A DNA stretch of 64,000 bases from a virus (lineage: Duplodnaviria > Heunggongvirae > Uroviricota > Caudoviricetes). This document shows, piece after piece, positions 26,502 to 27,090 of this stretch. Position numbers and translations under genes: made by a program. Every line of letters starts with the position of its first letter. Position 1 is the stretch's first letter. The notes below the pieces were generated by a model that was not told the origin of the DNA, ran no database searches, and saw only the letters and a list, made by a program, of their open reading frames with translations. The DNA is taken from IMG/VR virus record IMGVR_UViG_2534681834_000006; one strand, written 5' to 3'.

Positions 26502-26834
26502 TTAGTTACCGCTGATAGCGCGGTTGTAATCATTAACGTTGCGATTCTTCCTGTTAATCCCCATCAGCATCGTTTCTGTATCAAGGATATAGGCTGGCAG
26601 ATCATCAAAATATTCACTGCTAAACTCTGGCATCCTGCACATAAATGCACTTTTGGGGGCAGGGTGATTAACCTTTGTCGGCGTCGGCGTTAAATTCGCT
26701 GATCGACTCCCGGAGCAACCGCTGAGTGTCAACAGGAATGCGCTGGCGAACACTACCCGACGCAACCAGTTGTTTCTGAACTTCAGCTTTTCGTTCCATT
26801 TGTCTGTCTGCATACTTCGCTTGTTCTGATTCAT
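26502..26834 (-). CDS. lipoprotein (possible o-spanin-like)
   Basis: lipobox LTLSGC; Pro-rich after Cys; start codon uncertain; overlaps 3' end of preceding gene in another frame. Confidence 0.5.
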   Translation of the reverse strand: MNQNKRSMQTDKWNEKLKFRNNWLRRVVFASAFLLTLSGCSGSRSANLTPTPTKVNHPAPKSAFMCRMPEFSSEYFDDLPAYILDTETMLMGINRKNRNVNDYNRAISGN

Positions 26835-27090
26835 TTTTCACTTCCTGGCTGTGAAAATGTTGATCCGCTTTATTCATCGTCTCAATGGTCTGGTTAAGAT
26901 CAATGATTGACTTATCGCGCTCCTTAACAGCCTGATCAAGGCTGCCAATTTTTTCCAAGGCTTGCTTTAACTGATAACGTTCCCATGCAAACCCAGCACC
27001 AACAAGTGCGCAAATCAGGACAAGAACACCAGTAACAGCAAGTTTCTCCTTCAAAGACAAAGCTGTTTTTAACGTTGAAAAAAACGACAT
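26668..27090 (-). CDS. membrane-anchored coiled-coil protein (possible i-spanin-like)
   Basis: N-terminal TM VTGVLVLICALVGAGFAW followed by coiled coil; 3' end overlaps lipoprotein gene. Confidence 0.5.
   Translation of the reverse strand: MSFFSTLKTALSLKEKLAVTGVLVLICALVGAGFAWERYQLKQALEKIGSLDQAVKERDKSIIDLNQTIETMNKADQHFHSQEVKNESEQAKYADRQMERKAEVQKQLVASGSVRQRIPVDTQRLLRESISEFNADADKG

Follow-up and report, generated by a model that had tools for sequence, protein, structure and literature searches.

Overlapping ppfA/mlp genes in a P1-like phage-plasmid and their predicted products, a two-component spanin of the type known from P2 LysB/LysC

Introduction

The overlapping genes ppfA and mlp of bacteriophage P1 were reportedly annotated by Lobocka in 2004, and Summer is said to have identified them in 2007 as equivalents of Rz/Rz1. 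The present work deals with their counterpart in a stretch of viral DNA of 64 kb (IMG/VR record IMGVR_UViG_2534681834_000006, referred to as the window in its whole length), in which two overlapping open reading frames (ORFs) occupy positions 26502–27090 of the minus strand. An earlier note, made from the letters of the window, had pointed out that this pair resembles an arrangement of inner-membrane (i-) and outer-membrane (o-) spanin genes. The pair is already known, having been catalogued since 2004–2007 and included in a curated spanin database, SpaninDB, where the P1 products gp064 and gp063 form a two-component spanin of the class 'ovl' (Kongari 2018; PMC6139136). The genes ppfA and mlp were also named as the spanin genes of P1 by Bednarek 2022 (PMC9025707), and they are among the 21 most conserved genes across 77 P1-like phage-plasmids (PMC9603915).

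In SpaninDB, gp064 is an i-spanin of 140 amino acids (aa), with an N-terminal part of 36 aa that includes the transmembrane domain (TMD), a periplasmic domain of 104 aa and no periplasmic Cys, and gp063 is an o-spanin of 110 aa, 71 aa in the mature form, with the lipobox TLSG and one periplasmic Cys (PMC6139136). Bednarek 2022 calls ppfA the o-spanin gene and mlp the i-spanin gene (PMC9025707). Judging by the sequences these labels are swapped, since PpfA has a TMD, which makes it the i-spanin, and Mlp a lipobox, which makes it the o-spanin.

Three other systems serve as references. In phage P2, the genes lysB and lysC overlap by 146 nt and are located in the lysis cassette, right after those of the holin Y, the endolysin K and lysA. 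In lambda, Rz is a type II inner-membrane protein with helical periplasmic domains and two periplasmic Cys; the Rz1 gene, wholly embedded in Rz, encodes in the +1 frame a small outer-membrane lipoprotein with one periplasmic Cys. The mature lambda Rz1 has 40 aa and is much more Pro-rich than Mlp. In T4, the two-component spanin genes PseT.3/PseT.2 are separated from each other and lie away from the holin and endolysin genes; the i-spanin lacks periplasmic Cys and the o-spanin has two essential Cys.

Results

Equivalence of the ORF pair to P1 ppfA/mlp

The comparisons described below make it very probable that the two ORFs are the ppfA/mlp genes of a P1-like phage-plasmid and encode a two-component spanin of the P2 LysB/LysC type. 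Judged by nucleotide identity, the window is a P1-like phage-plasmid. Its segment 26000–28300 is 97.0% identical to the Escherichia phage RCS47 and 95–96% identical to P1 and P7; over 20000–44000 the identity to RCS47 and P1-type records reaches approximately 98%, and the left edge of the window corresponds to RCS47 position 42.6 kb. The 140-aa product was identical to P1 PpfA (gp064) at 132 of 140 positions (94%) and the 110-aa product to P1 Mlp (gp063) at 105 of 110 (95%), both without gaps and over the full length. The gene order upfC-upfB-ppfA-mlp-upfA-oriR-repA is likewise common to the window and P1.

By these alignments the ORF pair is orthologous to P1 ppfA/mlp, with the same lengths (140/110 aa), 167-nt +1 overlap, lipobox (TLSG↓C), Shine-Dalgarno (SD) sequences and neighbours (upfC-upfB on one side, upfA-oriR on the other). 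The differences from P1 include substitutions in Mlp, e.g., P6R, L9Q, G11D, M28V and V32A, with M28V turning a minor internal ATG of mlp into GTG. Additionally, the replicon adjoining the pair differs. In the region 24879–26045, RCS47 and several 'Punavirus P1' records match leftwards from 26000. As the similarity to P1 and P7 begins only at 26046, the repA/oriR module is of the RCS47 type (labelled RepFIB in one record) and not of the classical P1 type. The longest repA ORF (313 aa, TTG start) is probably some 20–27 codons too long.

Predicted products of ppfA and mlp

The ppfA orthologue (26668–27090, minus strand) encodes 140 aa opening with MSFFSTLKTALSLKEKLAVTGVLVLICALVGAGFAWERYQ and is preceded, 5 nt upstream of its ATG, by a perfect SD sequence, AGGAGG (27096–27101, minus strand), the same one that SpaninDB marks for P1 gp064. 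The single N-terminal transmembrane helix described in the earlier note was recovered: the most hydrophobic 19-residue segment is aa 17–35 (LAVTGVLVLICALVGAGFA; 26986–27042, minus strand), with a Kyte-Doolittle mean of 2.48, and no second such segment was found along the protein. The sole Cys of PpfA, C27, lies within it (SpaninDB has 'one in TMD'), which leaves none in the periplasmic part. The coiled coil also proposed for this protein is compatible with its AlphaFold2 model, built with 11 homologues (mean predicted local distance difference test score of 74), in which an unbroken helix (13–110) is followed by a break at 111–119 (G112, P119) and a second helix (120–139), and with a crude heptad count in which, in the best register, 57% of the a/d positions were hydrophobic against 25% elsewhere. 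PpfA is a predicted inner-membrane protein of type II, the periplasmic part of which would form a helical rod.

The mlp orthologue (26502–26834, minus strand) encodes, from the annotated ATG, a predicted o-spanin or outer-membrane lipoprotein precursor of 110 aa that opens with MNQNKRSMQTDKWNEKLKFRNNWLRRVVFASAFLLTLSGCSGS. The lipobox LTLSGC reported earlier was found in the segment FLLTLSG↓C (aa 34–40). Its core L-S-G-C (aa 37–40) is encoded by 26715–26726 (minus strand), and Cys40 (codon 26717–26715) is the predicted lipidated N-terminus of the mature protein, SpaninDB giving the LipoP cleavage at 39. The mature lipoprotein of 71 aa (26505–26717, minus strand) has a Pro/Thr-rich start, a Cys at position 66 and a conserved C-terminal half (YFDDLPAY...INRKNRNVN). 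Its description as a Pro-rich lipoprotein thus held for the lipoprotein signal and only moderately for the Pro content (6 of 71 residues, five of them within the first 30).

The mature N-terminus reads C-S-G, and Ser, not Asp, at position +2 predicts sorting of Mlp to the outer membrane, the +2 rule being established knowledge of the Lol pathway. The topology expected of a spanin pair is therefore predicted from sequence for both partners, with one hydrophobic segment in PpfA and a Ser+2 lipobox signal in Mlp. As for periplasmic Cys residues, for which a check had been proposed, C66 is the single further Cys of mature Mlp and is nearly invariant among the homologues. The criteria for two-component spanins of Summer 2007 and Kongari 2018 include one or more such Cys, available for a homotypic disulfide, which 507 of 528 systems possess.

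Public annotations and gene calls often cut the o-spanin gene to a C-terminal fragment of 45–65 aa, so that the signal peptide, the lipobox and the overlap are lost. These fragments start at M65 ('MCRMPEF...') or with 'MNLTPTP...', some are labelled 'Rz1', and the protein clusters P0011–P0014 consist of them. Examples were noted in the window (26502–26834) and in the compared loci L002 (2003–2143), L004 (3449–3589), L095 (1949–2086) and L097 (1949–2089).

Relationship to P2 LysB/LysC and lambda Rz/Rz1

In the scan against the PHROG library, PpfA matched phrog_89, 'Rz-like spanin', over nearly the whole profile (6.6e-23), and Mlp matched phrog_30284, also 'Rz-like spanin' (2.2e-74). P2 LysB falls into phrog_89 too (5.8e-61), whereas lambda Rz and Rz1 fall into phrog_13 and phrog_3198 of the same library. 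The similarity of Mlp to P2 LysC was significant in BLASTP (E=2e-8, 37% identity over 68 aa), and reciprocal PHROG cross-matches were obtained between these two proteins. For PpfA, the pairwise BLASTP comparison with P2 LysB was not significant (E=5.2) and the kinship is visible at the profile level only; the comparison with lambda Rz was not significant either (E=1.1). Weak but concordant matches were obtained in NCBIfam, PpfA to LysB (TIGR03495, E=0.002) and Mlp to P2_Rz1/LysC (NF038368, E=0.033). On these profile and pairwise scores, the pair is a remote member of the P2 LysB/LysC lineage and not a relative of lambda Rz/Rz1. The i-spanin/o-spanin reading of the earlier note agrees with the SpaninDB class and with both PHROG calls, as far as sequence-based assignments go.

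The layout is also that of P2, in which a protein of approximately 140 aa, with a TMD and helical, is overlapped in +1 by the gene of a lipoprotein of approximately 100 aa. In contrast to P2, the window pair is not linked to a lysis cassette, and P2 LysC starts at the equivalent of Mlp codon 24, without the basic extension of some 23 aa. With lambda Rz/Rz1 the pair shares the combination of a type II inner-membrane protein with helical periplasmic domains and a small +1-frame outer-membrane lipoprotein, as well as the presumed mechanism, a periplasm-spanning complex that fuses the membranes after peptidoglycan degradation. Nevertheless, sequence homology with lambda was undetectable by Pfam, BLASTP or PHROG, mlp extends 166 nt beyond ppfA instead of being embedded in it, and the periplasmic Cys count is zero in PpfA and one in Mlp. 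The unlinked position and the i-spanin without periplasmic Cys are shared with T4 PseT.3/PseT.2, but the T4 genes do not overlap and the two o-spanins differ in their Cys.

Overlap and selection on both reading frames

The two genes overlap by 167 nt (26668–26834, minus strand), with codons 86–140 and the stop of ppfA facing codons 1–56 of mlp, which lies in the +1 frame of ppfA; the overlap of about 165 nt in a different frame given in the earlier note is thus very close to the measured one. As mlp runs 166 nt past the ppfA stop, the architecture is of the 'overlapped' type. A start of mlp that would abolish the overlap, named at the outset as a possible refutation, is ruled out if LTLSG↓C is the processing site, because the codon of the lipobox Cys is located 50 nt inside ppfA.

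Divergence was analyzed with relatives whose PpfA is approximately 57–62% identical, from Cronobacter sakazakii, Klebsiella aerogenes, Salmonella and uncultured viral contigs. A profile scan of genome contigs with the PpfA alignment gave three near-identical loci only, and a first scan of viral contigs gave 80 loci of 94–100% identity, of little use for this purpose; the informative relatives came from a second viral-contig scan, seeded with the diverged clade, and from single-protein look-ups. One locus, L008 (JAFAFU010000017.1), is a 5.9-kb contig with a 94%-identical ppfA/mlp that was deposited in a 'Bacillota bacterium' metagenome-assembled genome, and is most likely an enterobacterial P1-like contig in the wrong bin.

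In all of the diverged relatives examined, the +1 ORF was open over the same span, ended at the same place and carried a lipobox (LSAC, LNAC, LNGC or LVAC) followed by a mature part of 71 aa. Substitutions were then counted between the window and the Cronobacter and Klebsiella loci. In the part that is ppfA only, third positions of ppfA differed in 48 of 85 cases (0.56). Over mlp codons 24–55 they differed in only 4 of 31 (Fisher p=2e-5) and 6 of 31 (p=6e-4), i.e., 0.13–0.19. Over mlp codons 1–23 the wobble divergence was 0.67, and the dual-frame constraint is consequently confined to the 3' part, from mlp codon 24. Beyond the ppfA stop, the changes were concentrated at third positions of the mlp frame (p=2e-3 and 2e-6). 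The suppression of wobble changes in the overlap, together with the mlp-frame codon pattern downstream, indicates that both frames are under purifying selection.

These counts bear directly on the alternative that mlp is a chance open frame in and after ppfA, the latter being the sole gene. Such a view could draw on the gene callers, which often omit mlp or call its C-terminal piece of 45–65 aa without the lipobox, and on the many spurious ORFs of 30–60 aa in the window. It fails to account for the significance of both the wobble suppression and the downstream codon-position pattern, for the lipobox and 71-aa mature length kept across diverged relatives and for the significant similarity of Mlp to P2 LysC. 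A chance frame is therefore extremely improbable, and on the comparative sequence data this reading is already refuted.

Start codon of mlp

The mapping of the lipoprotein start, suggested in the earlier note, was carried out by sequence comparison. The overlap persisted, while two candidate starts remained, the annotated ATG at 26834 and a TTG at 26765. The ATG follows an SD-like sequence, AGGAAG (26841–26846, minus strand), placed within ppfA codons Q82-E83-V84; this reads AGGAGG in the relatives with a PpfA identity of approximately 60%, and SpaninDB marks AGGA. The distance to the ATG is 6 nt from AGGAAG here and 9 nt from AGGAGG in the diverged clades. The upstream ATG was present in 11 of 11 representative sequences, its position being shifted by one codon between clades.

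Translation mainly from the internal TTG, codon 24 of mlp (26763–26765, minus strand), would give a precursor of 87 aa, a canonical signal peptide of 16 aa, (M)RRVVFASAFLLTLSG↓C, and an overlap of 98 nt, changing the anatomy and not the function; the mature lipoprotein encoded by the sequence is identical with either start. Compared codon by codon, 10 of the 11 representatives have a start codon at this position, TTG throughout the P1 clade and ATG in L004, L005, L090, L091, L093, L094, L096 and L097. Residue 109 of PpfA varies among V, H, D and Y, with codons that are always GTT, CAT, GAT or TAT, so that a TTG or ATG is kept in the +1 frame. Moreover, the constraint on the mlp frame begins precisely there, with an amino-acid identity of 22–26% over codons 1–23 vs. 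62–72% over codons 24–55 and the parallel drop in wobble divergence given above. Met1 of P2 LysC aligns exactly with residue 24 of Mlp, and the long form is the one flagged for its signal sequence in SpaninDB. By contrast, an SD sequence before codon 24 was absent in every clade, the codon is AGG in L095, which leaves the upstream ATG alone there, and that ATG is found in every representative, 6–9 nt after AGGAGG or AGGAAG. The extension of 22–23 residues is always strongly basic (4–7 K/R, 0–2 D/E), as in a long n-region.

On balance the annotated ATG is favored as the principal start of mlp, with some reserve, and the use of codon 24 as the main start is the distinctly less likely option. Codon 24 may have been left over from an ancestor resembling LysC, or it may act as a secondary start. 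In the latter case, as in holin genes with dual starts, how much spanin is exported, or when, could be tuned by the ratio between the two starts. A variant of Mlp was also seen in the protein cluster P0003 (31 member sequences), with the first 19 or so residues replaced by the unrelated MPVETTAIRVDGAEDTG-FRNNWLRRV... This exchange points to a recombination junction inside the ppfA/mlp overlap, just 5' of codon 24, and would bear on the choice of start codon.

Position, expression and the alternative of an envelope module

Several observations speak against a spanin function for the pair, among them its position and expression. In RCS47, lyz and lydD are located at approximately 14 kb, lydA/B/C at approximately 36 kb and ppfA at approximately 69 kb. 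In these coordinates the pair lies some 33 kb from lydA and 55 kb from lyz, away from the placement beside holin and endolysin genes that is typical, not obligatory, for spanins. Within the 64-kb window, tblastn with RCS47 Lyz, LydA, LydB, LydC and LydD gave no match, the structural transglycosylase Sit being the only one found; the earlier statement that the pair lies next to the replicon and far from any obvious holin or endolysin gene was correct. No late promoter for the cluster is annotated in the P1 record, which gives two predicted sigma-70 promoters (P1ppfA and P2ppfA) inside upfB. With a template for Lpa late promoters taken from LPdar (AAGTTACTT-N4-TACCAT, up to 2 mismatches), 12 matches were obtained in the window vs. 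4.8 expected, none of them between 25.8 and 28.7 kb. A generic sigma-70/terminator scan of 25.8–28.7 kb gave 3 sites vs. 4.3 in shuffled sequence and no convincing minus-strand promoter for the cluster.

The remaining adverse points concern the proteins and the phenotype. The annotated signal peptide of Mlp, of 39 aa, is unusually long, and the SpaninDB curators wrote 'Too long signal sequence' for P1 gp063, with a LipoP site at 39 and no PROSITE hit (PMC6139136), the latter owing to the long n-region. In NCBIfam the equivalog cut-offs were missed (18.4 vs. 92.75 bits for TIGR03495 and 14.3 vs. 27 for NF038368), which marks the pair as a remote LysB/LysC relative and not an equivalog. The Pfam scan of both proteins gave sub-threshold noise only (DUF3014, GAS) and no Rz or Rz1 model at E<=0.1; these models are presumably PF03245 and PF06085. 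In genome-wide CRISPR interference, ppfA and mlp were non-essential for plaques, with an efficiency of plating of 0.2–1.3 (PMC10695390), a behavior that is usual for spanin genes under laboratory conditions (PMC9025707). Finally, Bednarek 2022 describes the spanin role in P1 as experimentally unverified (PMC9025707).

Part of this evidence would also suit an envelope module that the plasmid prophage expresses, e.g., to bring about superinfection or surface exclusion or to remodel the envelope, in which case the replicon-side position would reflect a role in lysogeny. The location, with oriR/repA on one side, the C1-controlled dmt region on the other and both lyz and lydA-D at a distance, the lack of an Lpa motif at 25.8–28.7 kb with predicted sigma-70 promoters alone in the P1 annotation, the dispensability for plaque formation and the stated lack of verification (PMC9025707) all agree with such a module. 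However, the homologous LysB/LysC are encoded in the lysis cassette of P2, the +1 overlapped architecture of a TMD protein and a lipoprotein is specific to spanins, and no other spanin candidates of P1 have been reported (PMC9025707, SpaninDB). In addition, the cluster opens with the gene of a PAAR protein resembling gp5.4, the spike tip of T4, and this points to an operon of the lytic cycle. Nor is the position decisive, since T4 keeps its spanin genes apart and such genes need not adjoin those of the holin and endolysin. Bednarek 2022 had already noted that the P1 ppfA/mlp operon is unlinked to lyz and lydA/B (PMC9025707), and the dispersal of these genes is familiar from P1 and does not count against a role in lysis. 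An envelope module of this kind is consequently improbable, and the two-component spanin is retained as the preferred reading.

Surrounding genes and sites

The pair belongs to a same-strand cluster that begins with upfC (27927–28211, minus strand), the gene of a small PAAR-motif protein (PF05488, 1.1e-5; NF033420, T6SS_PAAR_dom, 4e-9; phrog_281) whose likeness to T4 ORF 5.4 is noted in the P1 record. If UpfC is a tail-spike tip, as it may be, the cluster would be a lytic-cycle operon. The gene upfC overlaps by 49 nt with upfB (27130–27975, minus strand; phrog_1559, P1 annotation), located directly 5' of ppfA. The last gene of the cluster, upfA (26098–26490, minus strand; phrog_1453, P1 annotation), is the only one between mlp and the oriR iterons plus repA (24879–25820). 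In the divergent intergenic region, 82 nt 5' of upfC, a C1 repressor operator (P1 Odmt/Op68 in the P1 annotation) was found at 28293–28309 (plus strand), with one mismatch to ATTGCTCTAATAAATTT. With up to 3 mismatches, this sequence has 13 matches in the window vs. 0.27 expected, including that one and the divalent pair at 31569–31596 (Oban).

P1-like elements differ in what lies between mlp and the replicon, as seen by comparing the window (26098–26490) with L004 (3600–4441), L005 (3424–3977), L096 (2101–2463) and L097 (2097–2462). The window has upfA only, the Cronobacter element a Gp49-family gene (PF13876) and upfA, the Salmonella locus L096 and the Logan contig L097 a Gp49-family gene and no upfA-sized gene, and the K. 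aerogenes element neither. The upfA gene of phage JL22 carries the insertion of a blaCTX-M-55 transposon.

Elsewhere in the window, the best matches to the Lpa motif (AAGTTACTT-N4-TANNNT) were located at 371–389 (minus), 21159–21177 (plus) and 21221–21239 (minus), with 0, 1 and 1 mismatches, and are presumably the known late promoters of the tail and head operons. The sit-pmgB stretch of the P1 record is without promoter annotation. The tblastn match of RCS47 Sit consisted of two pieces, residues 1–139 at 6730–6314 (75%) and residues 16–1140 at 6376–3044 (94%), which overlap in the region of the window at 6314–6730 (minus strand). This suggests a repeat or an indel difference near the N-terminus of this tape-measure/transglycosylase gene.

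Discussion

If the pair acts as the lambda Rz/Rz1 model proposes (Berry 2008, 2012, Rajaure 2015, as cited in PMC9025707), PpfA would insert into the inner membrane with its N-terminus inside and its C-terminus outside. Mlp would be exported, lipidated at Cys40, cleaved by signal peptidase II and carried by the Lol system to the outer membrane. The periplasmic domains of both proteins would bind through their C-terminal parts to form a complex reaching across the periplasm through the meshes of the peptidoglycan. With periplasmic Cys lacking in PpfA, a homotypic disulfide would probably be formed by C66 of Mlp. Once the LydA holin triggers and the signal-anchor-release endolysin Lyz, both encoded elsewhere on the genome, degrades the peptidoglycan, the freed complexes would change conformation, collapse and fuse the inner and outer membranes, completing lysis.

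A spanin operon without an apparent Lpa late promoter may be de-repressed early in P1, via the region of the C1 operator close by. In that event, the envelope would come to be pre-loaded with spanin complexes well ahead of the moment at which the holin triggers. The more elaborate proposal, in which a dual start of mlp, with signal peptides of 39 and 16 aa, tunes export and early de-repression of the C1 region pre-loads the spanins, is doubtful at present.

The discovery value of the locus is small, the pair having long been catalogued. It serves as a positive control, in that a spanin pair which many automatic annotations miss or truncate was recognized from raw sequence. Through its remote homology with P2 LysB/LysC, the 'singleton' spanin family of P1 can be linked to a paradigm one.

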